Source: Alphaproteobacteria bacterium UBA3864
Lineage (GTDB): Bacteria > Pseudomonadota > Alphaproteobacteria > CAAGCB01 > CAG-977
Length of the DNA: 64,000 nt
NCBI GenBank assembly: GCA_002393065.1
Contig: DGGW01000066.1
Coordinates: forward strand, 435 to 64,434
Direction of reading: 5' to 3'
A program made the translations under genes and the position numbers. The notes beneath the pieces were generated by a model. The model was not told the origin of the DNA and did no database searches. It saw only the letters and a list, made by a program, of their open reading frames with translations. Positions 374 to 55,856 of this stretch are shown here, piece after piece. How positions within the stretch are numbered: the first letter of the stretch is position 1; the number at the start of each line of letters is the position of its first letter.

Positions 374-481
374 GAATGCGTCATCTTTTGACGCACACCT
401 GCTGTATATTAAACACGAATCGTGCGGATTTGGCTTCGCTTGTTGCGCACGTTAAACACCAACTAAAAGGAGGATTTTAAA

Positions 482-1477
482 ATGTGTGTTGATTTTAAGG
501 AATATCATCGCGAATACTACACTTACCTTTTCGACCATATCGATGAATTCATCGCGTTGAAGGACGCGATCGACGCGACCCCTGAAATTTATTCGCATGA
601 CGGCGGCGGAACAACGAGTATTTTAAAAGGAAAATTCGAACTTCGTTTCGGGGGGTTGATCACGCTTTACGCGAACGGTCAATGGTGTGATCGGAAAAAG
701 AACGTCTTTCTGTATAAGATGTTGCAATGCCCGATGGGAAGCAAGGACGTTAAAGTGTACGGCTGGAACAACGAGGAAAAAGAATTTGACATATATTCCC
801 GCGTTTTTCCCGACACCGACACGCTGTTCGAACAAGCGCGGCTTGTCGCTCAATACAAACCGCAGACGGGAAAGAAAATAATTCCCCTTGAAACGCGAAA
901 CAGGTTGGCGGAGTTGTTTCAACCTCTGAAAGAATACACGCGCCATGCGGTTAACGACTTTAAATGTGTGGGCTTTGCCCGTCCGATTAACGGTCAAATC
1001 ACCGAAAAGAACATTCAAACGGGTGTTAAAACGCTGTTGGAAAATTGTGCGAAAGGACAATTGGAAAGGGTGAAATACGTCCTGAACAACTTCCCGCAGA
1101 TTTTCGGCAGGGCGGAAAGCAAAGACCTGCTTTTATCCGCCGCGAACGATTTGAGTATTTTGCGCTTTCTTTGCGATTGCGGCAAAACGGACGTTTCCGA
1201 CGCACCCGTTATCCGGAACGCGTGCAAGAGCAAAAAGGACGTTAAAGAACGTCTCGATTTATTGTTTGAACTGGGGGCGGACATCAATGCGAAAAACGGT
1301 GACGGTGAACCGCCGATCGTCGTTGCGGCGGAGGCGTTCAACATCAAAGCGATCCGCTGGCTTTTAAAGCACGGGGCGGACAAGACGGCGACGAACGCGA
1401 ATGACGAAACGGCGCGGGACATCGTTCTGAAAAACAAAGACGTTTTTAATTGGCGGGGAATTTTGAAACTGCTTTAG
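482..1477 (+). CDS. Ankyrin-repeat protein: an N-terminal domain of about 190 aa with unknown function plus C-terminal ANK repeats.
   Basis: A strong SD (AAAGGAGG) lies 8 nt upstream of the ATG. The C-terminus carries ANK consensus (LLFELGADINAKNGDGEPPIVVAA..LLKHGADKTATNANDETARD). Confidence 0.7.
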   Translation: MCVDFKEYHREYYTYLFDHIDEFIALKDAIDATPEIYSHDGGGTTSILKGKFELRFGGLITLYANGQWCDRKKNVFLYKMLQCPMGSKDVKVYGWNNEEKEFDIYSRVFPDTDTLFEQARLVAQYKPQTGKKIIPLETRNRLAELFQPLKEYTRHAVNDFKCVGFARPINGQITEKNIQTGVKTLLENCAKGQLERVKYVLNNFPQIFGRAESKDLLLSAANDLSILRFLCDCGKTDVSDAPVIRNACKSKKDVKERLDLLFELGADINAKNGDGEPPIVVAAEAFNIKAIRWLLKHGADKTATNANDETARDIVLKNKDVFNWRGILKLL

Positions 1478-1546
1478 CAAACGTCAGCTCCTGACGCATC
1501 ACTGTTTTAGAATATCCTTATCAACAATCGAAAAAGGAGAAAGAAA

Positions 1547-3266: not shown

Positions 3267-4265
3267 ATGATGCAAAACAAGGAAGATAAAGCGGAGCAGG
3301 GGACTTACGTCCGCTTCGCCAGAGTGTTGGATCTGGCCGTCAGAATGTTCGGACGGGGGCTGACGAAGGACGAGATCTGCCAAATCATGAAATGCTCGAA
3401 ACGGACGGCGGATCGCCTGATCGGCTGTTTTCAGGAAGTGTATTCCAACGGTTTGGAAGAATCTTCGAAAAACGGCAGGAAAACATGGAAAATCCTCGGC
3501 GGCGAAGATCTGCCCAAATCTTTGGAGATAGACGACGAAGATATTCTCCTGCTGAACAACCTTGCCGATTTGATGGCGCAACAGAACAGGGAAGCGGACG
3601 GCGACCGTCTGACAAAGATCCGCGCGAAACTCGTTCGGGCACTCGGAAACAAAGAGCGGGATCTGAACAATCTGGAATTTTCCGAAAGGAACGTCTTCCG
3701 GCCGGGAATCAAGGCTCAAATCGATCCCGAAATCGTCAGAACGATTCGTCGGGCGATCAGGGAAAAGAAAGTCCTCAATATCGAATATTACAATAAAAAG
3801 AGCGGGAAAATCAGCGAAGGCGCGCTCGAACCTTACGGCATTTTGTACAGCGATCGGGCGCAATATCTGCTGGCGCGCCACTGGGACGGTTATTTCGGCG
3901 ACGCGATCCATCAGTTCTTGCTGTCGAACATTCGTTCCGCCATCATGACGGACGAGGCGTTTGAAGGCGTCGATTTCGATATGAACGAATATACGAAAGA
4001 CTCTTTCGGCGTGTATCGCGAAGAACCGTACGACGTCGAATGGAAATTCAGCGCGAAGGCCGCGCCCGAAGCCAAAAAGTTCATCTTCCACCCCGGACAG
4101 GAAATCTTTGAGAACGAAGACGGCACGCTGACCGTGAAATTCCGAGCGGGCGGCACGCTGGAAATGGCATGGCATCTGGCGACGTGGGGAAAGCAGGTGG
4201 AAGTCGTACAACCCGCGGACTTTTGGCGGCGCGTCGCGAAAGCCGAACGGCAGCGGTGGCAGTAA
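3267..4265 (+). CDS. WYL-domain transcriptional regulator with wHTH-WYL-WCX architecture, BrxR/CapW/PafBC-like.
   Basis: SD AGGGGG. N-terminal HTH (LTKDEICQIMKCSKRTADRLI). WYL domain (VLNIEYYNKKSGKISEGALEPYGILYSDRAQYLLARHWDGY...FLLSNI). C-terminal WCX-like beta domain (GTLTVKFRAGGTLEMAWHLATWGKQVEVVQP). Confidence 0.85.
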   Translation: MMQNKEDKAEQGTYVRFARVLDLAVRMFGRGLTKDEICQIMKCSKRTADRLIGCFQEVYSNGLEESSKNGRKTWKILGGEDLPKSLEIDDEDILLLNNLADLMAQQNREADGDRLTKIRAKLVRALGNKERDLNNLEFSERNVFRPGIKAQIDPEIVRTIRRAIREKKVLNIEYYNKKSGKISEGALEPYGILYSDRAQYLLARHWDGYFGDAIHQFLLSNIRSAIMTDEAFEGVDFDMNEYTKDSFGVYREEPYDVEWKFSAKAAPEAKKFIFHPGQEIFENEDGTLTVKFRAGGTLEMAWHLATWGKQVEVVQPADFWRRVAKAERQRWQ

Positions 4266-4568
4266 ACTTTCGTTTGTATTTGACGGGTTAATCTGCCATA
4301 CTGTTTCCGTCAGCTTTTCTGACAGGGACTTCACAATCCCTTGCACAAACCGGTGCGGTTCAGAGATTCCGCATCGTCAACAAAACAAAATCTCCCGATC
4401 CATACGACCGGGAGATGGTGTTATGTTCAAGCATTTTGCCAAAAGCATCATGCCGTGTTTGTGCGGTTTGTGAACTCCCGGTCGCCAAGGGGAAAATCCT
4501 CCGGCGGCCGATTGTTTTAAGATTAACACTGTCGGGCGTCAAAACCTGACGATTTAAGGAATGAAAAA

Positions 4569-5573
4569 ATGAAAGCGGATTTATCGAAAGCTGTTCGGAT
4601 TATTAATAATCTGGATATCGATACTGATTCTGATCTTAACATCGTTGTTCAAGTCGCCAAATCTTTTGAAAAAAAAGAAGAAGAAAACAGAACAAAGAAA
4701 AAAGAATTTCTTCAAGCGATTGATGCGATTAACGGCTTGAAAGTCGATAACTCATACAGTTTTGATAAAGAATTCCGAGAAAATCACCCGATTTTAGGAG
4801 ATCTGGAAAACAATATATTTTTTGAAAGCCCTCTTTTTGAAGCCGTGCAAGTCGGAATGAAAGAACCGCAATATACGACGGCGTTAGGGTGGTTTTTACA
4901 AGAAGATCAGCAAGCCTGCCGGTTGTTTATAGAAACGCTCGCCGAAGTAGCAAATTTTCCGGAAGAATTTAAAAAGATATTACCGACTGAACACACTCCG
5001 ATTGAAAGCATATGGGAATATTCGGGTAAAAAAAATTCACAAAATGAAGAAGACGATGAAACGGATTCTGAAGGTAAAGAAGAAAAAAAAGCCGAGGAAG
5101 CCACATCCGAAACTTCTGATATCAGTGCCGGCAATGATGTGAAAAATCGCAAGGAAATAGACAATCTTTTGATTTGGGGAAGTGACAAGAAAAAACACGG
5201 TATCGTTATTGAAATCAAATTCGGTGCAGATTTGCACAATGAACTTCCATGTTATCAGCTAACAGCTTTAAAGAAGATGGGATATAATCCCTGCCAGAAA
5301 AATGAAAAACGTTGTGTTTTCCCAACAAACAGGGATTTGAAATGTGAAGATTGTCAGAAAAACAATTCTCTGATGTGCGTTGTTTTATCAACCAATCGCA
5401 TATCGGCTCAGAAAATCGAAGAGAACGACGGATGTCGAAAAATATGGCATAGGGTTTTGTGGTGTCATTTTATGCCGAAACTCAGTAAAAAAATGACACA
5501 ACATCAAGGGAATGGGGATTACAGGAGATTCCTGTCCTCGTTATGGCGTAAAGTGTTCGAAACTGAAGGGTAA
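4569..5573 (+). CDS. Hypothetical protein encoded in a strongly AT-rich segment. It carries a putative PD-(D/E)xK nuclease motif and a C-terminal Cys cluster.
   Basis: Codon usage and GC are clearly lower than in the flanks. D...EIK motif (LLIWGSDKKKHGIVIEIKFG). CxxC-type cluster (CQKNEKRC...CEDCQ). It lies directly downstream of the WYL regulator on the same strand. Confidence 0.55.
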   Translation: MKADLSKAVRIINNLDIDTDSDLNIVVQVAKSFEKKEEENRTKKKEFLQAIDAINGLKVDNSYSFDKEFRENHPILGDLENNIFFESPLFEAVQVGMKEPQYTTALGWFLQEDQQACRLFIETLAEVANFPEEFKKILPTEHTPIESIWEYSGKKNSQNEEDDETDSEGKEEKKAEEATSETSDISAGNDVKNRKEIDNLLIWGSDKKKHGIVIEIKFGADLHNELPCYQLTALKKMGYNPCQKNEKRCVFPTNRDLKCEDCQKNNSLMCVVLSTNRISAQKIEENDGCRKIWHRVLWCHFMPKLSKKMTQHQGNGDYRRFLSSLWRKVFETEG

Positions 5574-5577
5574 GAAA

Positions 5578-6237
5578 ATGGAAAACACGAAAAATTCTGA
5601 AATTTTCTCTAATGAAGAATTAGGAAAAGCGATCGAAACATACAATCTCTATATTGCAAACAGAGAAACTTTTAAAAAAGTTTACAATGAAGATTGTGAA
5701 TATGATGAAAACAAGTCTTTTATAGAAAATGCAAAAGACGAGATTAACTGTTATACGGCAAAAGGTAAAATAGAAACAACCGTGCCGGATGCAATCATGC
5801 TGGCCGCATATGTTTTTGAAAAAGCGGTTTGTCCTGTTTTGAAAGATAGGGAAATCGAAATTTCAAAGATACATTGGATACCAACGTATGGAGAAGATCC
5901 ATTTCCAGAATTTGATATAAAAATTGAGAATGAAAATTCACAAAAGCCTGTTTTGCTTGTCTTGGATTGCGAAGCTTTTCGCATTGGAGGAGCCTTTGTT
6001 GCAAAAGAAACAAAGAATAATATAACACTTGAAAAAATTTTTAAGGGTAAAAAAGAAGAATTTATAGATAAATCTGATGAAAAGGATTTATCAGAAAATA
6101 TTGTATTTTCAAAAAATAAATTTGAGTTTTCTTCAAATACTCCGCTTTCTTTGGATTGTTTGAACGAAAAAATCATTCCTCAAATCACAAAGGATTGTAA
6201 GAATTTAATAGAGGAGGCGTTCCTTCAGAATAACTAA
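5578..6237 (+). CDS. Hypothetical protein, AT-rich, operonic with 4569-5573 (4-bp gap).
   Basis: SD GAAGGG 6 nt upstream of the ATG at 5578. The ORF-track start at 5512 lies inside the upstream gene. No recognisable domain. Confidence 0.5.
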   Translation: MENTKNSEIFSNEELGKAIETYNLYIANRETFKKVYNEDCEYDENKSFIENAKDEINCYTAKGKIETTVPDAIMLAAYVFEKAVCPVLKDREIEISKIHWIPTYGEDPFPEFDIKIENENSQKPVLLVLDCEAFRIGGAFVAKETKNNITLEKIFKGKKEEFIDKSDEKDLSENIVFSKNKFEFSSNTPLSLDCLNEKIIPQITKDCKNLIEEAFLQNN

Positions 6238-6315
6238 ATCTTTTTCCGGCGGCGGGACGGACTTGCCGCCGGAATGATTTTTACGGTGTTCGAATCAAGC
6301 GTCAGGTTTTGTCGC
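6238..6315 (+). repeat. Copy A of a 78-bp near-identical direct repeat. It contains a GC hairpin (ccggcggc-N11-gccgccgg, 6246-6272) followed by a T-rich tract, so it looks like a terminator plus a conserved downstream leader.
   Basis: About 95% identical to 6833-6910. Both copies sit immediately 3' of a stop codon and 5' of a gene with a similar RBS context (TATGAAAGG...AAATG). Confidence 0.8.
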
Positions 6316-6367
6316 AGATACATGATATAAGGAAGATATCATTCAATCATTATGAAAGGGAACCGAA

Positions 6368-6826
6368 ATGAAAAATACGTTGTTGGACATTATTCAATCT
6401 TTTGAACATCCGATGGATTTGGATGATCAGGAAGTGCGCGAAGTGTTGGATTCGATTGATGATTTAACGCATCGTCAGATAAAAAACGCCGTTGAAGCGT
6501 TGTTGGATAAATACAAAAGTATTCAAAGAGGATATGAAATCAGAGGTGGAATACTTTCCAAAAAGATTGAAAAACTTATCCAAGAACTGGGAAAGAAAGG
6601 TGAAAAACTTTCTCCCGATTCAATAGAGGCAATGAAGGAATTTTTGGAAGAAGAAGGATACGTCGTCTACAAAAACGCTTCAGCGATTGCGATTGATATG
6701 GTCGAATTGCCTCTGAAATTGAGAAATGAGTTTCAGGCGGAAAAGAATCGTATGGGAACAATAACATACGAAAAGAAAAAAGGAATGGTTCTTGATGCCT
6801 TGAAAGAGTGGGCGGGCGAAGAATAA
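6368..6826 (+). CDS. Hypothetical small acidic protein (152 aa), AT-rich, bracketed by the 78-bp repeats.
   Basis: ATG with an upstream GAAAGGGAA. Clean ORF with no recognisable domain. Low GC like the two preceding genes. Confidence 0.5.
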   Translation: MKNTLLDIIQSFEHPMDLDDQEVREVLDSIDDLTHRQIKNAVEALLDKYKSIQRGYEIRGGILSKKIEKLIQELGKKGEKLSPDSIEAMKEFLEEEGYVVYKNASAIAIDMVELPLKLRNEFQAEKNRMGTITYEKKKGMVLDALKEWAGEE

Positions 6827-6832
6827 TTCCTA

Positions 6833-6910
6833 ATCTTTTTCCGGCGGCGGGGCGGACTTGCCGCTGGAATGATTTTTACGGTGTTCGAATCAAGCGTCAG
6901 GTTTTGTCGC
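6833..6910 (+). repeat. Copy B of the 78-bp direct repeat. The hairpin is at 6841-6867 with a G-U wobble-preserving substitution.
   Basis: Same sequence as copy A with three substitutions. The c>t change keeps RNA stem pairing as G·U. Confidence 0.8.
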
Positions 6911-6963
6911 GGGCGGGTGATACAAGGGAAAATATCGTTCGACCGTTATGAAAGGAATATGAA

Positions 6964-7667
6964 ATGACCAAAAAAGCGAAAGTGAAAAACTGGAGAGAGT
7001 TTTTTGAATCCGATCCGAAGGAACTTCCGTTCGCCGACATGAACGTTCGCGACGAAATAGGGCGACGATGCTGATCGGCGCAGCCCGTTCTTCCGCCGAT
7101 GTCGTGCGGCGCATCATCGATGCCGGCGCGGACGTCAACGCGGGGGCGGAGGGCAATTCGATAACCCCGCTGATTTGCGCCGCTGTCAACAGCGCTTATC
7201 CCGCCGTGATCAAAATGTTGGTCAAAGCCGGCGCGGATATCGAGGCAAAAATCAATCCTGAAGGCGAAGACCGCGGAACGCCTTTGCAGGCGGCGTTGGA
7301 AGCGAAAAATTTCAAAATCGCGCAGGCGTTGATCAAAGCGGGCGCAAACGTCAACGCAAAAGACGGTAAAGGAAGAACTCCTTTGATGATAACCGCTTGC
7401 CACGACGGAAACTGCGACATAATAGAGGCTTTGTTAAACGCGGGAGCGAAAATCAACGAAAAAGACAATGAGGGAAGAACGGCATTGATGCGTGCGGCCA
7501 AGTGGGAGACCCCCGATATCGTCAAACTGCTTCTTAAAGCCGGTGCGAACGTCAACGCTGTCGACAAAAAAGGCAAAACGGCTTTGGATTACGCGCGGGA
7601 AAAGGGACGCGACGAAATCGTTTTGCTGTTGGAAAAAGTTGTGGCAGGCGAAACAGCGGAGGAATGA
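6964..7667 (+). pseudogene. Ankyrin-repeat protein gene interrupted by a -1 frameshift near 7060-7068 (the pieces are 6964-7074 and 7068-7667).
   Basis: The frame-1 ORF ends ...DMNVRDEIGRRC*. The frame-3 ORF continues ATMLIGAARSS... and then 6 clean ANK repeats. Joining at g7062 restores the ANK consensus DEIGATMLIGAA. The break lies in a GGG run, so a sequencing error is possible. Confidence 0.5.
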
Positions 7668-7790: not shown

Positions 7791-7865
7791 TGGAGCGGGC
7801 GATGGGAATCGAACCCACGACATCAACCTTGGCAAGGTTGCGCTCTACCCCTGAGCTACACCCGC
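7791..7865 (-). tRNA. tRNA-Gly (anticodon GCC).
   Basis: The reverse complement reads gcgggtgtagctcaggggtagagcgcaaccttGCCaaggttgatgtcgtgggttcgattcccatcgcccgctcca. It is a cloverleaf with a GTTCGATTC T-loop and ends in CCA. Confidence 0.9.
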
Positions 7866-29209: not shown

Positions 29210-31012
29210 TCAGAACCGGTACTGCAATCCGGACGTGATCGTTTTATTATCATATTTTTTGCCGTCCTGAAACGAATACGCCGTTACCCACGACCAATCC
29301 CGCGAAAGGGATACGGACAGTCCCGCGTCATAAACCGTTAATCTGGCGTCTTTGCGCGTCATCGCTTCCGGACGGACGGAAAGCGTTGTTCTGACTTTGC
29401 CGAAATCGGCGGCAAGGCCGACTTCGAATCCCAATCCCGCGACGGAACGTTTTCCGGCTTTGATCGTGGCGGTCATGATCAGATAAGCGTCAATATGCTT
29501 TCCGATCATCACGGCGCCGCCCGCACCGCCGGAAACGTCAAAAACGGGCAGTTCTTTGCCGGACGGCGAATAGAAAAAGCGGTCGAATCCGAATTTGACT
29601 TTGAACGCGACGGGATGGAACAGCTGTTCCGCGGGGGCCGGCGACATCAGATCGACAAAATCCAACCGGCGCAAAGACAGCTTGCCGTCTTCGTCGTAAC
29701 GAGCCGTTCCCGCCAGATAGTTGATGGCGTTGAACGGAATGAAGCCTTCGCTTTCGTCCAGAAGGGTGTGCAGAACGGGACGCCACGTCAATTCGACGAA
29801 GTTCTTGTGATTGCCATGTCCGGCGCTGACAGTGACGGCGGACGGTTTGTGGCTCTGGTCGGGACGGACGGACGGCACGGGAACGGGCGGCAGAACGCTT
29901 TTCGCGGGCAGGGCGTTGCGCGCTTTCAACAAGGCGATGGTACTGTCGCGCAGTGTTTTCAGATCGACCTTTTTCTTGATGAAACGGTATTGCAGATACT
30001 CGTAAGCCGTTTCCAGAACGGCGGCTTTGCGTTCGTCGGGCAGGTCGATCGCGGCGTTCGGATCGTCGATCAGCTTGTAAAGCGCGTCGCGTTCGGCGTC
30101 GGACAGATGGGCGAACGCGTTTCGGATTTTCGTTTGCCTGCTCGGACGGTAAACGATGTCGCCCGCCAAGCCTTTTTGTTTCAGGACGATGCGCACCGTG
30201 TCCGCCGGCAACGTGAAAAGGAAAGGCAGCTGTTCCGTCCAATCCGTTTCGGGGCGCAACAGGTTCAGCGTTTCCATCACCATGTACGAACAGTTTTCGG
30301 TCGCGAAATAGTATTGCGCCGTGTTGTGGCCGAGCTCCCACACATGGGCGATGAACAGGTCGGATTCTTCCTGCGTCATGTTCAGCCTGTATTCCCAGAT
30401 ATCGCGGTTTTCCATATTGTTGTACAGGTTGACCGTGTCGTAATACGGGTAAACGGAAAACACGCCGGGGTATCCGCCGGAGAGACCTTTTATCGCGTAC
30501 AGAATGTCGGTGTCGTTGCCGGTCACGGCGCCGTAGTTCAGCGCGTAAGACAGTAACGTCGCATCCCGTTGCGAATCGAGCCGCAACAACGTATGGCCGA
30601 AAAACGAAGCGGGATTGCCCAGATACGACGTCGTGTAAATCAGCGCGACGCGCGTCAGACCGATTTCCTTTCTGAATTTATCGTATTCGGGACATTCGGG
30701 GGCGGGCAGGGAAAGCCCGAGTTTGCGCTTTAACCATAAATAACGGCCGGCGAACAGACAAGCTTTTGACGGGTCTTTGTTGAACAATTCCGCGGTGGCC
30801 TTCAGTTCGGAAACGAGGTTCGTTTTGCCGTCGGGCGCGATGAAAAACTCTTTGGAATCGACGGTGCTTTCTTTTTTATGAAAGTGCATCAGCCGCGCCC
30901 ACGCGGGGTCGGCGGCGAAGTCTTTGATTTGCGCTTCGGTCAAATGAAAAGGCTCTGCCGCCTTTGCCGCGAAGCAAAGAAGACAGAGCCCTATCAGTAA
31001 TCCGAAACGCAC
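29210..31012 (-). CDS. DUF4105 (Lnb N-terminal-like) domain-containing secreted protein.
   Basis: Signal peptide. FGHTLLR signature (YLGNPASFFGHTLLRLD). 600 aa. Confidence 0.65.
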   Translation of the reverse strand: MRFGLLIGLCLLCFAAKAAEPFHLTEAQIKDFAADPAWARLMHFHKKESTVDSKEFFIAPDGKTNLVSELKATAELFNKDPSKACLFAGRYLWLKRKLGLSLPAPECPEYDKFRKEIGLTRVALIYTTSYLGNPASFFGHTLLRLDSQRDATLLSYALNYGAVTGNDTDILYAIKGLSGGYPGVFSVYPYYDTVNLYNNMENRDIWEYRLNMTQEESDLFIAHVWELGHNTAQYYFATENCSYMVMETLNLLRPETDWTEQLPFLFTLPADTVRIVLKQKGLAGDIVYRPSRQTKIRNAFAHLSDAERDALYKLIDDPNAAIDLPDERKAAVLETAYEYLQYRFIKKKVDLKTLRDSTIALLKARNALPAKSVLPPVPVPSVRPDQSHKPSAVTVSAGHGNHKNFVELTWRPVLHTLLDESEGFIPFNAINYLAGTARYDEDGKLSLRRLDFVDLMSPAPAEQLFHPVAFKVKFGFDRFFYSPSGKELPVFDVSGGAGGAVMIGKHIDAYLIMTATIKAGKRSVAGLGFEVGLAADFGKVRTTLSVRPEAMTRKDARLTVYDAGLSVSLSRDWSWVTAYSFQDGKKYDNKTITSGLQYRF

Positions 31013-31018
31013 GGACGA

Positions 31019-31465
31019 TCAGCCCAGCAGGTTGACCATCTTCGTCGCGACGGAAGCCGCGTCGGCGTCGGAATTCGCAAACAGTTCGCCGAAGTTGGCG
31101 CGGGCGATCAAACCGACCTTTTCGGAAGACGTGCCGACGATGGAAGCGATCGTGTCGATCGTTTCGCCGTGTCCGCGGGAAGCGTCAACGGCGAACTGTT
31201 CCAAGTTGTTTTCCAGGAACGAGAACACCAGCTTGCCCGTGCCGCCGGAGATCGTGTCGTTCTGACGGCAACCGGAGGTTCCCGTCGTGATGCCGAACGT
31301 CTGGCTGTAGAACGTGCCGTTCGTCGTAACCGCCAAGGTCTGCGGAACGATGCCGCTCTGGCCTTTCCAAACGATGGCGCCCAAACCGCAGCCGACGCTG
31401 TCGGCCTTCGCTTCGGAAGCCATGAACGCCAAAGCCAAACCGCAACAAACCAATACTTTTTTCAT
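31019..31465 (-). CDS. DUF3015-like small secreted protein, copy 1 of a tandem duplicate.
   Basis: Signal peptide MKKVLVCCGLALAFMASEA. GCGLGAIVWKGQSG...TTNGTF..QTFGITTGTSGC motif series. Confidence 0.6.
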   Translation of the reverse strand: MKKVLVCCGLALAFMASEAKADSVGCGLGAIVWKGQSGIVPQTLAVTTNGTFYSQTFGITTGTSGCRQNDTISGGTGKLVFSFLENNLEQFAVDASRGHGETIDTIASIVGTSSEKVGLIARANFGELFANSDADAASVATKMVNLLG

Positions 31466-31639
31466 TGAGAGCTCCTCTTAATAAATAAAAAAGCAAGAAA
31501 AAGGTACGATAAAAAGACGGATTTTTCAATCATAAAGTTTTAAAAGAACCGTTCCCCGCGTTTCTTTTGCCGCAAAAAAAACTCTGCCGCCTTCACCGGA
31601 AAGCGAAGACGGCAGAACCCGAGCCGTATATCCGGACGA

Positions 31640-32086
31640 TCAACCCAACAGGTTGACCATCTTCGTCGCGACGGAAGCCGCGTCGGCGTCGGAAGTGGAA
31701 AACAGCTCGCTGAAGTTGGCGCGGGCGATCAGACCGACCTTTTCGGACGACGTGCCGACGATGGAAGCGATCGTGTCGATCGTTTCGCCGTGTCCGCGGG
31801 AAGCGTCAACGGCGAACTGTTCCAGATTGTTTTCCAGAAACGAGAACACCAGCTTGCCCGTGCCGCCGGAGATCGTGTCGTTCTGACGGCAACCGGAGGT
31901 TCCCGTCGTGATGCCGAACGTCTGGCTGCCGAACGTGCCGTTCGTCGTAGCGGCCAGAACCTGCGGAACGAGACCGCTCTGACCTTTCCAAACGATGGCG
32001 CCCAGACCGCAACCGACGCTGTCGGCTTTCGCTTCGGAAGCCATGAACGCCAGAGCCAAACCGCAACAAACCAATACTTTTTTCAT
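31640..32086 (-). CDS. DUF3015-like small secreted protein, copy 2 (about 93% amino-acid identity to copy 1).
   Basis: Same length and sequence as 31019-31465 with about 10 substitutions. The upstream region is also duplicated. Confidence 0.6.
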   Translation of the reverse strand: MKKVLVCCGLALAFMASEAKADSVGCGLGAIVWKGQSGLVPQVLAATTNGTFGSQTFGITTGTSGCRQNDTISGGTGKLVFSFLENNLEQFAVDASRGHGETIDTIASIVGTSSEKVGLIARANFSELFSTSDADAASVATKMVNLLG

Positions 32087-47400: not shown

Positions 47401-50385
47401 ATGGAATGGAAGGATATTATAGGCAAAACGGTTTATCATAAAGTTTTTGGAGAAGGAAAAATAAAATCTTGTGATGGAAAACGCATAGAGGTTAGCTTTG
47501 GCGTTGGAGAAAAAAAGTTTTTTTTCCCAGAGGCTTTTAAGTATGGAGATTTATATGAACGGAAAGATCAAGAACTTCTGAAACAACAACGTCAAGAAGA
47601 GGAAAGGCTCCGTCAGGAAGAGGAGCGAAAGGCTTGGAAACATTTTGAGCAACAACGACGGGAAAAGGAAAGACGCAGTCAAGAAGCGCTGAGACGTCGG
47701 CGGGAAGAGGAGCAAAAGGCCCGGGAACTCCGTGAGCAACAATGGCGTGAAGAGGAAAGGCGTCGTCAGGAAGAACTGAGACGTCGGCAGGAAGAGGAGC
47801 GAAAGGCTCGGGAACTTCGCGAGCAACAACAATGGGAAGAAAAAAGGCGTCGGCAGGAAGAGGAAAGACATTGGCGGAAAGTAGTAGAAAAAGAGCTGAA
47901 TAGTCCTTTGACCGACGAACAATGGGCCGCGATTTACAATGATGACGACGCGTCTTTGATCGTCGCGGGGGCGGGGTGCGGCAAAACGACGACGGCTTTG
48001 GGAAAAATCGTTTATCTGGTCAGGTCCGGCAAAGCGAAACTGGAAGAAATTTTACCGATTTATTTCAATAAGAAAAACGCTGACGAAATGAACGGTAAAA
48101 TCATAGATATTTTCGGGAATACGCAAAAAATAGCTTACGACTATCACAGTGTGGGCTTGAAGTTTTTAAAAGAATCCTGCCCTGTAGAAAAAACTGAAGA
48201 TATGATACGCCGGATATTTAAAGATTTTCTCGATGATAAAAAAAGCGAAGATTTAATCTGCCGGATTTTTGATTTCATCGTGCGATATATGTATACCGAT
48301 AATGAACGCACGATGGAAATGTTTCCGAAAGGCTTTGACGATTTGTCCGTTGAAAAAAAAGTTGAAGCGTTGGAAGATGATTGCGAGACGTTAAACGGTG
48401 AACGTGTCAAAAGTCCGGCGGAGGCCGTGATCGCGAATTTCCTGTTTACGCATCACATCCCCTATGTTTACGAGAAATGGTTTAAATCTTGTTATCCTGA
48501 TGCATATCCGATGAAACCGGATTTTTATGTGCCTTTGGGGGACGGAACTGATCCGAAACACGCCGTTTGGATCGAACATTGGGGCATTGAATTCGACAGT
48601 TACGGAAATGAACGGGCCAGATGGCTGGATGAAAAGGGGGAAAGGGATTATATCGAAGACAAGAAACAGAAGCTGGCGGAATATAGAAAAAACAATGTCA
48701 AACTGATCGAGTTGTTTTTATCCGATTTTAAAGACGACACGCTGATCGATAAATTGAAAACGAAATTGGAAGAATTCGGCGTGGATACAAGCCGGGGAAT
48801 GACCCGCGATGAAAGAATAAGGTATATTAAAAAACTGATTAAAACAAAAAAATTAGAATCATTTCAAAATTTTGTTCAACGGTGTATAGAGCTTTTAAAA
48901 AGCAATAAACACACATCGCAGGATATTCCTAAAATTCATAAAAACGCTCTTCGCGATTTGGAAAAACGCGAAATGGAAAGGGTGAAAGAATTTTACAGAA
49001 TCGTCTATTGCGTTATGAAGGAATACGAAAGACGGCAAGGGGAAGAGAACGGTATTGATTTTGCGGATATGCTGATAAAAGCGCCGGCGAAAATCGCCGA
49101 CGCGGAGCTTCGGTACAAATACATCATCATTGACGAATATCAGGATATTGACGAACTTGATTATGAACTGATTTCCGCAATTCAGAAAAAAACGAACGCG
49201 AAAATCTGTTGCGTCGGCGATGATTGGCAGGCGATTTATCGTTTCAAAGGGGCAGATCTTGGTTTCTTTTCAAATTTCGGGAGGTATTTTCCGAATTTCA
49301 AAACATACCGTGTTCAGCAAACATTCCGAAACGGCGCGCCGTTGATCGATATTGCCGGAAAGTTTATTCAAAAAAACGACCGGCAGTTAAGAAAGACAAT
49401 TCGTTCCGATAAAAGTACGTTCCTGAAGGCCGTCCGCTATCATGAATTTGAAAGCCGGGGAAGAGAAAAGGACGTAGATCGATTGAACTGTCTGTTCGAT
49501 ATTTTAAACCAGCCGGACAAGGATAATTTTCTTATCATCGTCAGAAACAATAGCGATTTTAACAAATATTTTGATTGTTTGGGCGAAGACGTTTCCAGTC
49601 TTTCGGACGTTGAAAAGGCTTTGCGGCGAAAGTTTTCCAAAAATATCGAAGTTCGGACGGCACATAGGTCAAAGGGGCTGGAATACGATTATGTCGTCGT
49701 TTTCAATACAGCCTGCAGAATGACGGGTTTCCCGTCTCTGATGGATGATGATCCCGCGATTTCGTTTTTGTTGCCGGAAAAAGAGGAGTATTCTTTGGCG
49801 GAAGAACGGCGGTTGTTTTATGTCGCTCTGACGCGGGCTAAAAAAGGATGTTATCTGCTTGTTCCGAAATTTATGCCGTCGTGGTTCTTTTTTGAGATTC
49901 AAGACGCTATCGGCAAAGACAATATCTTTGATTCCGACAACGCCTTGCTGGCTACTTGCCCATGGTGCGGTAGGGAAATGGAACGCAAACAAAGAAAGGA
50001 TGAAACAAAAGCAATATTTTACAGCTGTTCATCCTATCCCGATTGCAAGTATTCTGCGCCGAAAGGCTTTATCGTTAAAAACTGCGATGATGTCGAAAAG
50101 CTGATAAAAGAAAAAGCCGAAAAACAAAACAGACCGGCATCCGTGTATGTCTATGATGAACGGAAAAAAGAGCTCGACTTCATGGATTGCACGCTTTTTG
50201 AGAATGCGAAGGATAAACGCCCCGCGGACCGAAGCGTTGATGTTTATATCGTGATCAATGATGTAAAGAATTGTTCCGAAGTTAGAAACTTTTTGATAAA
50301 ATTAAACCGCGAACCCGTTTTGTTGAATTTATCCGAAAACGATATACCGGAACAATTCATAAAAAACGTTTTCGGAACGCTGTGA
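47401..50385 (+). CDS. UvrD/PcrA-like superfamily-1 helicase (994 aa) with N-terminal charged tandem repeats, an inserted Vsr/DUF559-like PD-(D/E)xK endonuclease domain and a C-terminal topoisomerase-type C4 zinc ribbon.
   Basis: Walker A LIVAGAGCGKTTT. Motif II IIIDEYQDI. Motif III CCVGDDWQAIYRFKGAD. Motif VI YVALTRAKKGCYLL. Internal nuclease region SPAEAVIANFLFTHHIPYVYEKWF...PDFYVP...VWIEHWGIEFD...KQKLAEY...LIEL. Zinc ribbon CPWCG...YSCSSYPDCKY. Low GC. Confidence 0.8.
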   Translation: MEWKDIIGKTVYHKVFGEGKIKSCDGKRIEVSFGVGEKKFFFPEAFKYGDLYERKDQELLKQQRQEEERLRQEEERKAWKHFEQQRREKERRSQEALRRRREEEQKARELREQQWREEERRRQEELRRRQEEERKARELREQQQWEEKRRRQEEERHWRKVVEKELNSPLTDEQWAAIYNDDDASLIVAGAGCGKTTTALGKIVYLVRSGKAKLEEILPIYFNKKNADEMNGKIIDIFGNTQKIAYDYHSVGLKFLKESCPVEKTEDMIRRIFKDFLDDKKSEDLICRIFDFIVRYMYTDNERTMEMFPKGFDDLSVEKKVEALEDDCETLNGERVKSPAEAVIANFLFTHHIPYVYEKWFKSCYPDAYPMKPDFYVPLGDGTDPKHAVWIEHWGIEFDSYGNERARWLDEKGERDYIEDKKQKLAEYRKNNVKLIELFLSDFKDDTLIDKLKTKLEEFGVDTSRGMTRDERIRYIKKLIKTKKLESFQNFVQRCIELLKSNKHTSQDIPKIHKNALRDLEKREMERVKEFYRIVYCVMKEYERRQGEENGIDFADMLIKAPAKIADAELRYKYIIIDEYQDIDELDYELISAIQKKTNAKICCVGDDWQAIYRFKGADLGFFSNFGRYFPNFKTYRVQQTFRNGAPLIDIAGKFIQKNDRQLRKTIRSDKSTFLKAVRYHEFESRGREKDVDRLNCLFDILNQPDKDNFLIIVRNNSDFNKYFDCLGEDVSSLSDVEKALRRKFSKNIEVRTAHRSKGLEYDYVVVFNTACRMTGFPSLMDDDPAISFLLPEKEEYSLAEERRLFYVALTRAKKGCYLLVPKFMPSWFFFEIQDAIGKDNIFDSDNALLATCPWCGREMERKQRKDETKAIFYSCSSYPDCKYSAPKGFIVKNCDDVEKLIKEKAEKQNRPASVYVYDERKKELDFMDCTLFENAKDKRPADRSVDVYIVINDVKNCSEVRNFLIKLNREPVLLNLSENDIPEQFIKNVFGTL
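47580..47880 (+). repeat. In-frame tandem repeat with an 87-bp period (29 aa, ELRRRQEEERKARELREQQW-type), 2 clean plus about 1.5 degenerate copies, inside the helicase gene.
   Basis: 47689-47775 matches 47776-47862 at about 88% nucleotide identity. Confidence 0.7.
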
Positions 50386-52316: not shown

Positions 52317-52450
52317 GATTTCGATCCTAAAAAATCCGATGGCGGAACTATACTGTAAAAGGCTTGTTCCGTCAATGTTTTTTGCTCGTTGACTTGAACC
52401 GAAAGGGATTTTACCATAAAGCACCTTGTCATGTGTCGGAGAACCCGGAA

Positions 52451-55400
52451 ATGGGAAAAGTCTGTTTTGCGATTTCATTGATTCTTTTAAGTTTTTCAAA
52501 CGCCGAAGCGCAAAATTTCGAAAATGTGCTCTGGAGTTCGGCAACGGTCGAAGAAGTCGATGACCTGATCAAAGCCGGCGCCGATGCGGACGCGTGGTAC
52601 ATGGTGGTGGACGAAAAAACGAACCCGTTGCTGGAAGCGGCCGAAAAAGCCAAAAAACCCGCCGTTATCGACGCTTTGATCAGGGCGGGCGCGGATACGG
52701 ACGTTCGCGATGACAAAGGGCGGACGCCGATGCTGGTGGCGGCAGAGGAAAACGAAAATCCTGCTGTCGTCATAGCTTTCGTCAAGGCGGGAATCGATCC
52801 GGACGCCCAAAGGCTGGAAGGGCGGGAAACGGCAGGATTGACGCCGCTGATGCTGGCTTTGATAAAAAATAAAAACCCCGCCGTCGCGGAAGCTCTGCTC
52901 AAAGCGGGAGCGAACGCGAACACTTCGGTGTATTATAAGAATATCGAACAAACGCCGTTGATGTGGGCCGTCGAAAACGGAAATCTTCCCGCAGCGAAAA
53001 CGCTGATCAAAGCGGGCGCCGATTTAAACGCCCGAAATGTTCAGGGATGGACGCCGCTGATGATCGCCGTGGAAAACAAAACGTCTCTCCTGCTGGACGA
53101 ACTGATTAAAGCGGGCGTAAATTCGGACGCGAAAAAGCTGGCACAGGAACGGTTGTTTTTTTCTTTGATAAATAATCGCCCTCTTGCCGGAATAGAATCA
53201 TTGATCCGGGAGGGCGCGGACGTGAACGCCCGAAACAAAAACGGTGAAACGCCGTTGATGTTCGCCGCTGAATTTCACACTGATCCCGCCGTCATTAAAA
53301 CGCTGATCAAAGTGAAAGCCGACGTGAACGCGCAGGACGGGAACGGCGAAACGCCGCTGATGAGGGCGACGGGGAACGATATTGGCGTCGTCGAAGCGCT
53401 GATCAAGGCGAAAGCCGATGTGAAAGCGCAGGATAAAAACGGTGATTCACCGCTGATGTGGGCCGCGAAATACGCCCGGACTCCCGCCGTCATCGACGCT
53501 TTGATCAGGGCGGGCGCGGGGGTGCATTCGCGCAACAGGTACGGGGAAATCCCTCTGATGCATGCGTACGGAAAAAACGCGGAGGCGTTGATCAAAGCCG
53601 GAACGGACGTGAATGTTCGGGATAACGACGGAAAAACGGCGTTGATGCGAACTCTCGACGCGGAGGAGTATTCCGCCGAACGTCTGGCCATGCTGATCAA
53701 AGCGGGTGCGGACGTGAACGCCAGAGATAAAAAGGGACAAACGCCCCTGATGTATGCGGCTAAAAACGCGGAAGACGCCGTCAACGCGTTGATCACGGCG
53801 GGCGCAAAGGTGAACGACTACGACAAAGAGGGAAACTCGCCGTTGCGTTTCGCCGTCGCGCATGACAAAAAACAGACCGTCGTCGCGTTGGTCAGAGCCG
53901 GAGCGACGGACGCGAACGTCCGCAACGCCGATAACGGAAAAACGCCGTTGATGTATGTCGCGGATGATGAAAAAAACAAAGATGTCGTCGAACTGCTGAT
54001 CAAAGCGGGCGCGAACGTGAACGCCAGGGATAAGGACGGAAAAACACCCTTGGCGTACGCGAAAGACAAGGCGATCGCCGAGATGCTGAAAAGGGCGGGG
54101 GCGAAGGAAGAAGAACTTTCGAAAAAAGAAACGCCGGAACCGGAATCGAAAAAAAATCCGGATAACGCCCGTTCCGAATTGAACCGGCGGTTGATTGCCG
54201 CAATCGTTTCCGGAAACCTTGCCGATACGGAAGATTTGATCAAAGCGGGCGCGGACGTGAACGCTCCCGCCAAAGAAGGCGTGCCGCTGATTTACGCAAT
54301 GAACGGCAGGAATCCCGTTCCCGTCGTCGAAACGTTGCTTGACGCCGGAGCGAATACGGAAACACGGGACGATAACGGACTGACGCCGCTGATGACGGCC
54401 GTTCTCGGCAACAGGCTTGACATGGTAAAAGCGCTGGTCAGGGGCGGCGCGGACGTGAACGCGCGCGTCCAAAAAGGAAAAAGGCAACATAATCCGCCGT
54501 TCCGGGAAGGGGAAACGGTGCTGATGCTGGCGTCGGGGGAAACGCCCGTTTCGTCGGCCGTCGTCGAAACGTTGATCAAAGCGGGCGCCGATATCAACGC
54601 GCAAGACGAATACGGTTATACTCCGCTGATGAAGTCTCTTGTTTTTATCAGGAAAAATCTTGCCCGAGTGATCGCTTTGCTTGACGCCGGCGCGGACGTC
54701 AACATTCGCGCAAAGGACGGAATGACGGCTTTCCGGATCGCCGATTCTTTGAAAGGAACGTCGATCTTTTGGAAACTGCGCGATTCGAAGTATTCTGCCG
54801 AAACGAAAGATGGTCGGAAAAAGGTTGCATCCGATCCGGTCAAGGCGAAAGAGAAGCCCGAAGAGAAAAAAGAGGCGCTGGTTTATGCGGCCAAAAAAAG
54901 AAACGAAGCCGTTGTCGGGGCGTTGATCAAATCAATCGCCGACAAAGCCGAAACGCCGGAGGATTTTCGTTTCAAACTGAATCAGTTGCTGACGAACGCG
55001 ATCGTCAACGGCGATCTTGACGACATCGGGGCGCTGATCAAAGCCGGAGCGGACGTGAATTTCCGAAGCAAGCGCGACGGACTGACGCCGTTGATGACGG
55101 CGGCGAAGGCGGATGTGTATCCGACGGTCATCGAAGCCCTGATCAAAGCGGGGGCGAAGGTAAACGTGTCCGCCAAAGACGGCCGGACCGCGCTGATGTA
55201 CGCGGTGGAAAGCGAAAGTCTGACCAATATGGAAACCCTTATCAAAGCGGGCGCGGACGTGAACGCTCCGTCCCGAACGGGATGGACCGCGCTGATGTAC
55301 GCGGCGAAGGACCACGAGGATCCTTACATCATCGAAACGCTGGTCATAGCCGGCGCCTTCGTCAATGTCCGCGTTAAGGACAAGACGCCGCTGGTTTGCG

Positions 55401-55855
55401 CTTTGGGACGCGGAAATCCTCTTGTGATCGACGCTTTGATTCGTGCGGGTGCGGACGTCAATGTCCGAAGCAACGACGGACGAACGCCGTTGATGGAAGT
55501 GTTGGAAAAAAACGGGAAGACGGACGTAATAGACCTGTTGATCAAAGCGGGCGCGAACGTGAACGCCAGGGACGACGAAAGAAAGTCGCCGCTGATGAAA
55601 GCCGTGGAAGCCGAAAGGGATTCGACCGTGATCGGCATGCTGATCGAAACGGGTGCGGAAGTGAACGCTCGTGATAAAAACGGAATGACGCCGCTGATGA
55701 TTGCGGTCCGGAAAGGTAAAAACCTTTCGGTGATAAAAGCGTTGATCAAGGCGGGAAGCAACGTGAACGCCAAAAACAACGACGGGGAAACGCCGTTGAT
55801 GATGGCAAAAACTCCCGAAGTTTCGGCTGTTCTGATCAGAGAGGGGGCGCGGTGA
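52451..55855 (+). CDS. Giant secreted ankyrin-repeat protein (about 1134 aa, about 30 ANK repeats).
   Basis: Signal peptide MGKVCFAISLILLSFSNAEA. Continuous LIKAGADVNA[RK]D.[ND]G.TPLM modules. A short Lys/Glu-rich linker in the middle. Confidence 0.8.
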   Translation: MGKVCFAISLILLSFSNAEAQNFENVLWSSATVEEVDDLIKAGADADAWYMVVDEKTNPLLEAAEKAKKPAVIDALIRAGADTDVRDDKGRTPMLVAAEENENPAVVIAFVKAGIDPDAQRLEGRETAGLTPLMLALIKNKNPAVAEALLKAGANANTSVYYKNIEQTPLMWAVENGNLPAAKTLIKAGADLNARNVQGWTPLMIAVENKTSLLLDELIKAGVNSDAKKLAQERLFFSLINNRPLAGIESLIREGADVNARNKNGETPLMFAAEFHTDPAVIKTLIKVKADVNAQDGNGETPLMRATGNDIGVVEALIKAKADVKAQDKNGDSPLMWAAKYARTPAVIDALIRAGAGVHSRNRYGEIPLMHAYGKNAEALIKAGTDVNVRDNDGKTALMRTLDAEEYSAERLAMLIKAGADVNARDKKGQTPLMYAAKNAEDAVNALITAGAKVNDYDKEGNSPLRFAVAHDKKQTVVALVRAGATDANVRNADNGKTPLMYVADDEKNKDVVELLIKAGANVNARDKDGKTPLAYAKDKAIAEMLKRAGAKEEELSKKETPEPESKKNPDNARSELNRRLIAAIVSGNLADTEDLIKAGADVNAPAKEGVPLIYAMNGRNPVPVVETLLDAGANTETRDDNGLTPLMTAVLGNRLDMVKALVRGGADVNARVQKGKRQHNPPFREGETVLMLASGETPVSSAVVETLIKAGADINAQDEYGYTPLMKSLVFIRKNLARVIALLDAGADVNIRAKDGMTAFRIADSLKGTSIFWKLRDSKYSAETKDGRKKVASDPVKAKEKPEEKKEALVYAAKKRNEAVVGALIKSIADKAETPEDFRFKLNQLLTNAIVNGDLDDIGALIKAGADVNFRSKRDGLTPLMTAAKADVYPTVIEALIKAGAKVNVSAKDGRTALMYAVESESLTNMETLIKAGADVNAPSRTGWTALMYAAKDHEDPYIIETLVIAGAFVNVRVKDKTPLVCALGRGNPLVIDALIRAGADVNVRSNDGRTPLMEVLEKNGKTDVIDLLIKAGANVNARDDERKSPLMKAVEAERDSTVIGMLIETGAEVNARDKNGMTPLMIAVRKGKNLSVIKALIKAGSNVNAKNNDGETPLMMAKTPEVSAVLIREGAR

Positions 55856-55856
55856 A

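Follow-up and report, generated by a model that had tools for sequence, protein, structure and literature searches.

The WYL-family regulator DriD of Caulobacter is switched on by single-stranded DNA (ssDNA). It is a homodimeric activator with winged helix-turn-helix (wHTH), WYL and WCX domains that recognizes the consensus ATACGAC(X)7GTCGTAT, with the core C1G2X3C4-N7-G12X13C14G15 and an AT-rich center; Arg37 and Arg41 read G2 and the guanine opposite C4, and the site, always equally far from the -10 element, overlaps the -35 position (PMC10853764, PMC13004042). The motif CGXC(X)7GXCG with its AT-rich gap is present at 68 of 69 alphaproteobacterial DriD loci (PMC10853764, PMC13004042), and the Caulobacter promoters of didA (GGCG+CATGGCTCGGC+CAAGGT) and of the CCNA_03891 side (GTCG+CAATGCGCGGA+CAATCT) have 11 nt to the -10 and no -35 (PMC13004042). 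Mycobacterial PafBC promoters, tGTCgg(N10)tA(N3)T, have no -35 either (PMC8635444). Here we describe a 79-nt direct repeat around a gene for a 152-amino-acid (aa) protein, which is probably a duplicated terminator joined to a DriD-type promoter. It lies in a stretch of 64,000 nt, hereafter the window, from contig DGGW01000066.1 of Alphaproteobacteria bacterium UBA3864 (assembly GCA_002393065.1, positions 435 to 64,434).

A repeat search aligned positions 6237-6332 with 6832-6927 at 91% identity over 96 nt. The near-identical core of this alignment (Table 1) contains two mismatches in 79 nt, one in a hairpin loop (6257, A/G) and one in the stem (6270, C/T), which at ~97% identity is slightly above the ~95% given by the first-pass annotation. 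Beyond the core, the similarity is ~70% (17 differences in 56 nt) as far as the start codons at 6368 and 6964. A stop codon stands at or just before the beginning of each copy (TAA at 6235-6237 and TAA at 6824-6826), and each copy consists of a 13-bp terminator-like hairpin, rich in GC and followed by a U-tract, then a spacer of ~25 nt, and finally a 15-bp pseudo-palindrome. The repeat is seen in several independent assemblies (L001, L002, L004, L006, L021), and short-read contigs end within it, as is expected of a genuine repeat. With up to three mismatches allowed, the 31-mer GGTGTTCGAATCAAGCGTCAGGTTTTGTCGC has exactly two matches in the window, where shuffled sequences lead one to expect none. 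The hairpin-to-spacer part had one match in a metagenome scan, on a Joint Genome Institute (JGI) contig representing the same locus, and the leader part had none in 185,579 species genomes (GTDB). As hairpin plus spacer was found only at these two sites in the window, species-genome and metagenome scans, we consider this part a local duplication, the very outcome the first-pass annotation had foreseen for an element restricted to two places. The species-genome collection also holds no relatives of a neighboring YhdP-like protein; since both scans were empty, it appears to lack a close genome of this organism.

The 15-bp pseudo-palindrome is the box CGTCAGGTTTTGTCG, the same in both copies, which stands 11 nt upstream of a -10-like hexamer without a -35: the -35 position reads CAGGTT or CATCTT, and a consensus promoter scan returned no -35/-10 pair for either the 152-aa gene or the ankyrin gene behind copy 2. 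From box 1, where a -35 hexamer at normal distance is likewise absent, transcription is predicted to start at ~6338, giving a 5' untranslated region (5'UTR) of ~30 nt with the Shine-Dalgarno (SD) sequence GAAAGGGAA. A pseudo-palindrome with an AT-rich center at a fixed distance from the -10, without a -35 consensus, is the makeup of a DriD-type promoter, and it is not limited to the repeat. The window holds four matches to the strict pattern CGWC-NNN-TTTTG-WCG (379, 4537 on the minus strand, 6300 and 6895), all of them intergenic and within the first 7 kb, compared with a mean of 0.32 in shuffles, none of which reached four. Three further strict matches lie just upstream of the window in L001, which extends it leftward. 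Altogether, the same box and geometry are found before at least eight transcription units of one gene island and nowhere in the other 57 kb. Across 24 distinct sites collected from the window's lineage and related loci, the box consensus is C-G-W-C-A-K-G-T-T-T-T-G-W-C-G, with G2, C4, G12 and C14 invariant (24/24) and T at positions 8-11 in 21 to 24 sites. The gap to the hexamer is exactly 11 nt in every one of the 24, and the hexamer is TAtaaT-like (T1 in 21/24, A2 in 22/24). The box at 4537-4551 is conserved in L018, L010 and L028, and one box locus, in L016, reads AAACGACAGGTTTTGTCGTAT, a single base off the DriD consensus.

Other promoter classes describe these sites poorly. A -35 element normally lies 16-18 nt from the -10; TTGTCG as a sigma-70 -35 fails on its 11-nt spacer, and a -10 hexamer 17 nt further downstream is inconsistent across the sites. 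Sigma-54 and extracytoplasmic function (ECF) sigma factor patterns do not fit. The first-pass annotation had proposed a regulatory leader shared in modular fashion between unrelated genes. Much of this holds, as a terminator-plus-leader unit is repeated before two consecutive genes, the box and its spacing recur at the island's promoters, and two leader families are reused in the island. Its further idea, that ~40 conserved nucleotides form a leader with a T-loop, is not supported; the only constrained piece is the protein-binding box together with the -10 hexamer.

Which protein might bind these boxes? A candidate is encoded ~3 kb upstream of the repeat, at the end of a box-driven operon. The best PDB matches of this HTH-WYL-WCX protein are DriD (8TP8/8TPK and 9PFQ; E 6e-27, residues 15-317), while PafC is matched weakly (E 5e-4) and neither BrxR nor CapW structures at E 0.01. 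Its segment KRTADR aligns with R36-R37-T38-A39-E40-R41 of DriD; both base-reading arginines, Arg37 and Arg41, are kept, Glu40 is replaced by Asp, and the tyrosine of NYL is retained. Regulators of the DriD family combine a wHTH, a three-helix bundle, WYL and WCX with the two base-reading arginines, and by this description the protein belongs to that family.

The locus thus resembles the Caulobacter DriD promoters (didA, bapE, CCNA_03891; PMC10853764, PMC13004042) in the 15-bp box CGXC-N7-GXCG with its T/A-rich center, the 11 nt to a weak -10, the missing -35, a regulator of the homodimer type with Arg37 and Arg41, and an alphaproteobacterial host. As reported for driD itself, a start codon follows one box at 17 nt, and that box points away from it. 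Unlike in Caulobacter, the boxes are restricted to a single island that looks horizontally acquired and holds ankyrin, PD-(D/E)XK-like and unknown genes, genes for DNA repair or cell division play no part, the ssDNA pocket is partly not conserved, the regulator ends a box-driven operon, and the system is known from sequence alone. The likeness to the '-26 element' of PafBC, a case of sigma adaptation (PMC8635444), consists in a GTC element 10 nt upstream of tAnnnT that replaces the -35 and in a WYL-family regulator; the site here is palindromic, whereas that of PafBC is non-palindromic and bound by a heterodimer.

The hairpins at 6244-6274 and 6839-6869, each followed by TGATTTTTAC, are the two top terminator-like sites in a scan of 4-8.2 kb. 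Both 13-bp stems have 8-9 GC pairs and appear in the minimum free energy (MFE) as well as the centroid structures. Hairpin 1 reaches -24.5 kcal/mol on the plus strand and -20.0 on the complement; hairpin 2, in which C>T at 6865 produces one G-U pair, reaches -23.7 vs -13.8 kcal/mol. In every one of five variants, the plus-strand RNA hairpin is stabler than its complement, and all stem changes (C>T, three times, in the 3' arm) give G-U pairs, so that pairing is kept only in plus-strand RNA. This fits a terminator of plus-strand transcripts, and the stem, the TGATTTTTAC tract and the position past a stop codon on the coding strand are those of Rho-independent terminators. Two observations of the first-pass annotation, a hairpin and T-rich tract after each stop codon and a C>T stem change that preserves a G·U pair, are thereby confirmed. 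Similar terminators are found in gene-converted duplicated intergenic regions, likewise with a GC-rich stem and U-tract right after the stop codon and with two paralogous copies evolving in concert. The only oddity relative to that class is an inverted hairpin apex in a third lineage, L019: at 1818-1846 of that contig, the apex reads AAATCCGTCCC against GGGACGGACTT in the window, AAGTCCGTCCC being the reverse complement of the window apex, which looks like a hairpin-loop inversion.

From this anatomy and homology, we consider it likely that the repeat is a duplicated terminator plus DriD-type promoter, in which termination is followed by regulator-dependent initiation. Each copy would serve as an intergenic insulator-plus-promoter unit: the GC-rich hairpin and U-tract would end transcription of the upstream gene, and ~25 nt further on, the 15-bp box (CGTC-N7-GTCG, T-rich center) would be bound by the island's own DriD-family WYL regulator. 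The box overlaps the usual place of the -35, and the -10 that follows at a constant 11 nt is weak and TG-extended; initiation by RNA polymerase carrying the housekeeping sigma factor therefore probably depends on the regulator being bound. In this view, one island-wide regulon would include both the 152-aa gene and the ankyrin gene, each with a terminator and a start of its own. We infer the termination and the binding of the regulator, as well as the inducing signal, from structure and homology. Both copies are an ordinary regulatory duplication within a regulator-controlled variable gene island, and the element is, by its motif and spacing, an apparent addition to the known class of DriD-type promoters.

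Several points weigh against this interpretation. In the alignment, several of the residues with which DriD contacts ssDNA (Arg204, Trp206 and Arg207) are not conserved, and the ligand or effector may therefore differ from that of DriD. The U-tract begins 3-5 nt past the stem, which makes the efficiency of the terminator uncertain. Both -10 hexamers, TATAAG and TACAAG, end in G and lack the usually conserved final T, the box at 1482 has a GC-richer center, and the box at 4537-4551, 17 nt before a start codon and facing away from it, is a poor fit to a simple activator of that gene. Moreover, the organism is known from metagenome assemblies only.

The sign of regulation is less certain than the mechanism, with activation favored over repression. 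The same anatomy would serve a repressor of the BrxR/CapW type, which would occlude the promoter until released by a phage or DNA-damage signal, the TTGTCG/TTGACG of the box then being a misplaced -35-like element. WYL regulators beside defense islands are typically repressors that act on inverted repeats in promoters (PMC9122601, PMC13622015), and the BrxR/CapW systems share with this locus a WYL gene beside variable nuclease-type genes and inverted-repeat operators in promoters (PMC9122601). Defense-like neighbors exist as well, namely the PD-(D/E)XK modules of the island and, in related loci, a DUF2779/Cas4-like gene and N6 methyltransferases, and the right half of the box does read TTGWCG. 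However, this TTGWCG lies 11 nt from the -10 hexamer instead of the usual 16-18 nt, the protein resembles DriD and matches no solved BrxR or CapW structure at the cutoff used, and the box occupies the identical position as in DriD-activated promoters, a geometry that fits an activator. We therefore regard repression as unlikely.

Table 1. Features of the repeat and the surrounding island (window coordinates)
Feature	Position	Strand	Evidence or remark
Box before ankyrin gene 482-1477, CGTCATCTTTTGACG	379-393	+	DriD-type; 11 nt, then TATATT
Box before operon ank 1547, ank 2410, WYL 3267, CGTCAGCTCCTGACG	1482-1496	+	DriD-type; 11 nt, then TAGAAT
HTH-WYL-WCX regulator, full-length C. crescentus DriD homolog	3267-4265	+	Pfam WYL, WCX, HTH; candidate box-binding protein
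Box upstream of gene 4569	4537-4551	-	DriD-type; 11 nt, then TAATCT at 4525-4520; 17 nt upstream of the start codon
AT-rich two-gene module, 334 aa (PD-(D/E)XK-like ...IDxLL...IEIKFG motif) + 219 aa	4569-6237	+	Ends where copy 1 begins
Repeat copy 1 core (hairpin, spacer, DriD-type box)	6237-6315	+	2 differences vs copy 2; inter-strain homology starts exactly at 6237
Terminator-like hairpin 1 (stem 6244-6274, loop ACGGA) and TGATTTTTAC	6244-6284	+	Top terminator-like site; predicted to end the 219-aa gene
Spacer with 'T-loop-like' GTTCGAATC	6285-6299	+	No sign of constraint; 3 of 5 shared strain differences here
Box 1, CGTCAGGTTTTGTCG (CGWC-N7-GWCG, T-rich center)	6300-6314	+	Matches published motif C1G2X3C4(X)7G12X13C14G15
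Older diverged part of duplication (promoter spacer, -10, 5'UTR, SD) of 152-aa gene	6316-6367	+	Paralogous to 6911-6963
-10-like TATAAG, preceded by TG at 6323-6324	6326-6331	+	11 nt after box 1; geometry shared by 24 sites
152-aa acidic protein, predicted all-helical	6368-6826	+	Between the copies; always in this island
Repeat copy 2 core	6832-6910	+	Repeat search, alignment
Terminator-like hairpin 2 and TGATTTTTAC	6839-6879	+	Terminator scan, folding; predicted to end the 152-aa gene
Box 2, CGTCAGGTTTTGTCG	6895-6909	+	Motif match
-10-like TACAAG, preceded by TG at 6918-6919	6921-6926	+	11 nt after box 2; predicted to drive the ankyrin gene
Frameshifted ankyrin-repeat gene (36-aa open reading frame (ORF) 6964-7074 + 199-aa ORF 7068-7667)	6964-7667	+	

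How did two copies come to be so alike over 79 nt and so different beyond? A second strain of the same species (strain B; L003-L007) encodes an identical 152-aa protein and carries the same two units. Compared with strain A, that of the window, copy 1 (80 nt) has eight differences, the following 515 nt, which span promoter 1, the 152-aa gene and the short stretch left before copy 2, two, copy 2 (80 nt) seven, and promoter 2 (53 nt) none; five of these differences are identical in both copies. From hairpin to box (72-73 nt), there are 1-2 differences between the copies of one genome and 6-7 between the strains, while from box to ATG (55-56 nt), there are 17 between the copies and none between the strains. 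Because the two patterns are reversed, gene conversion appears to be confined to the left part of the unit. The concerted substitutions indicate that the copies are kept alike by gene conversion and that the left 79 nt were probably homogenized recently. In this scenario, the promoter/5'UTR unit would have been duplicated long ago, its parts now being ~70% alike, and the hairpin-to-box stretch would later have been copied from one copy onto the other across the 595 bp between them, leaving them 97% identical. In L019, hairpin and spacer are present at copy 2 only, and the stop codon abuts the box at the position of copy 1; a third, older promoter/5'UTR copy stands before a 201-aa lipoprotein gene in L003 and L028. 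A caution is due, as the strain B sequences are short-read contigs of 1.5-3.7 kb, and repeat collapse in assembly could in principle exaggerate the identity of their copies. Against such a collapse, copy-specific single differences are retained in both strains. Small as it is, the locus would offer a clear case of a sharply delimited gene conversion tract, reaching from hairpin to box.

What varies between strains is not the gene between the copies. The first-pass annotation had seen in it an AT-rich orphan, bracketed by the repeats as a cassette. Instead, the 152-aa protein has 12 homolog clusters, 11 of them with 88-100% identity and from at least three lineages, making it a conserved anchor; it had no significant match in Pfam, PADLOC, NCBIfam or PHROGs, and its AlphaFold2 model (predicted local distance difference test score, pLDDT, 50) is too poor for use. 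It is the module preceding copy 1, 4569-6237, that is exchanged from strain to strain: left of 6237, strains A and B have no nucleotide homology. In a related species, in which the 152-aa protein is 88-89% identical, the order ank-ank-WYL ... promoter-152-aa is constant, and the slot holds gene pairs of 313+209, 337+211 or 304+230 aa or single genes of 398, 420 (both PDDEXK_4) or 440 aa. Of these, the 337+211 pair shares 64% identity with the pair in the window. Since the content of the slot differs while the flanking gene order is constant, 4569-6237 is the variable cassette. The 334-aa protein matches PDDEXK_4 marginally (E 0.024, shared ID..LL / IE.K.G motif), which is a hint only. The slot looks like a defense-island-style exchange point downstream of the WYL regulator.

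In the more distant L028 (3522-4010), a distant homolog of the 152-aa protein (39-51% identity) lies between the ankyrin genes and the WYL gene and not after the variable module; as this is upstream of the WYL gene, genes evidently change position within the island. In the same contig, the leader after the PDDEXK_4 gene drives the 201-aa lipoprotein gene.

Two other stretches of the island resemble known RNA families. Between the WYL gene and the variable module, 4406-4491 (+) gives a full-length, sub-threshold match to the Rfam family sRNA-Xcc1 (32.5 bits; gathering threshold 53), which recurs on the plus strand in L018, L028 and L010 (32-35.5 bits) and is ~95% conserved while the neighboring genes diverge. 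In the literature, sRNA-Xcc1 is found upstream of the symE toxin in integron cassettes. The opposite-strand DriD-box promoter (4520-4551 (-)) reads through this stretch to a terminator-like hairpin (4390-4416 (-)). The second is a shared leader at 412-486 (+), also present at L001 620-690, L028 584-658, L018 4618-4692 and L010 3688-3762, whose 5'UTR of ~50 nt (AATCGTGCGGATTTGGCTTCGCTTGTTGCGCACGTTAAACA.CAACTAAA.GGAGG) is invariant before unrelated genes in several lineages. Its match to the alphaproteobacterial S-adenosylmethionine (SAM) riboswitch SAM-II, RF00521, is full-length but stays below the threshold (25-27 bits; gathering threshold 36). The leader begins at the start predicted from the box at 379-393, and the matched CUAAA is immediately followed by the SD. 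The genes behind it are ankyrin or unknown genes, not methionine (Met) or SAM genes.

A more far-reaching scheme, to which we give a low probability, would make the repeat unit a junction piece of integrase-free gene shuffling, with portable blocks of DriD-box promoter and leader providing the homology for insertion, relocation and homogenization. Newcomer genes might thereby be wired automatically into a single damage- or phage-sensing regulon. PD-(D/E)XK modules might be exchanged in the slot flanked by the regulator gene and the first leader, a slot with the sRNA-Xcc1-like RNA ahead of it. Of the two leader families, one is SAM-II riboswitch-like.

That the 79-mer is itself the edge of a mobile or site-specifically recombining cassette, of the integron attC type or related to dispersed repeats such as repetitive extragenic palindromes (REP) and miniature inverted-repeat transposable elements (MITE), and so moves the 152-aa gene, is very improbable. 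It is true that a single small AT-rich gene lies between direct repeats, that homology between the strains breaks off at the left end of copy 1, and that the 152-aa homolog is placed differently in L028. The locus also recalls integron attC arrays in its imperfect hairpin after each small gene and its row of accessory genes. Unlike in such arrays, integrase and attC core sites are absent, every unit is served by a promoter of its own, and there are only two copies. Neither an integrase nor a transposase was found among the island ORFs scanned, and the copies show neither terminal inverted repeats nor target-site duplications. The swapping of modules is explained by homologous recombination within the flanks, which are conserved. 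A variant in which the 219-aa gene directly precedes the ankyrin gene, the 152-aa gene being missing, did not turn up among contigs reached via the flanking proteins; the contigs that this search did return all break inside the repeat. The integron attC candidate was rejected for want of an integrase in the island ORFs and of a GTTRRRY/RYYYAAC pair at the repeat ends and on account of the promoters, and a REP- or MITE-like dispersed repeat in view of two copies in 64 kb, zero leader matches in the GTDB species genomes and a metagenome match that is the same locus.

Least probable of all is a structured RNA leader (riboswitch, tRNA-like or T-loop) acting in cis on the downstream genes: GTTCGAATC resembles a T-loop and the 151 nt around copy 1 fold better than shuffles (z = -2.8), but this signal is due to the terminator hairpin (z = -1.3 for copy 2), the segment lies upstream of the mRNA given the predicted transcription start, the predicted 30-nt 5'UTR is unstructured (-0.4 kcal/mol), and the T-loop proposed by the first-pass annotation reads GTCCGAATC in strain B and ATTTGAACC in L019, in a spacer that is the least conserved part of the element. 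The tRNA-like or T-loop and riboswitch candidates were dropped, as neither Rfam (at the gathering threshold and at E 1) nor ARAGORN had a match in the element.

The island occupies positions 1-7.7 kb as a plus-strand gene run with three ankyrin genes, the HTH-WYL-WCX regulator, an AT-rich stretch (30-39% GC vs 55-58% elsewhere) holding the 334-aa, 219-aa and 152-aa genes, and the frameshifted ankyrin gene. It ends at a minus-strand tRNA-Gly(GCC), 7791-7865; a repeat of the 3' end of this tRNA that might mark an island boundary is not present in the window. The first-pass annotation had noted the frameshift, and the same 36+199 gene calls are made in independent assemblies (L001, L002, L026). 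Loss of 1 nt near 7063 shifts the frame of the gene, which is far shorter than its intact 646-aa counterpart in strain B (L003 635-2575). Its 3' end differs between the strains and is followed in strain B by the lipoprotein gene with the third leader copy and in the window by tRNA-Gly.

Related contigs come from gut metagenomes, and the nearest named sequences to the window's ribosomal protein S1 are from Alphaproteobacteria/Rhodospirillales; the host is apparently an alphaproteobacterium of the gut. Elsewhere in the window, 31012-31311 and 31633-31932 form a 300-nt direct repeat, 95% identical and 621 nt apart, and at 47590-47881, within a 994-aa ORF (47401-50385), an 87-nt unit occurs three times in tandem (73-75% identity over 118 nt). 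Most repeat families of the window stem from very long ankyrin-repeat arrays at 52364-57503 (ORFs of 1163 and 548 aa). With these arrays and the island genes, the genome is unusually rich in ankyrin proteins for a bacterium.

The repeat itself is a routine terminator-promoter duplication. Its value is that of a pointer: in an uncultured alphaproteobacterium of the gut, it led to a compact island whose promoters, at least five of them in the window and at least eight overall, seem to be under the control of a DriD homolog. These promoters front ankyrin-repeat genes, a strain-variable nuclease-like module and conserved genes of unknown function. If this is true, DriD-type promoters, in which the box replaces the -35, would extend from chromosomal DNA-damage genes to an accessory island that is possibly related to defense or host interaction, and the ankyrin proteins of gut bacteria would gain a concrete regulon.

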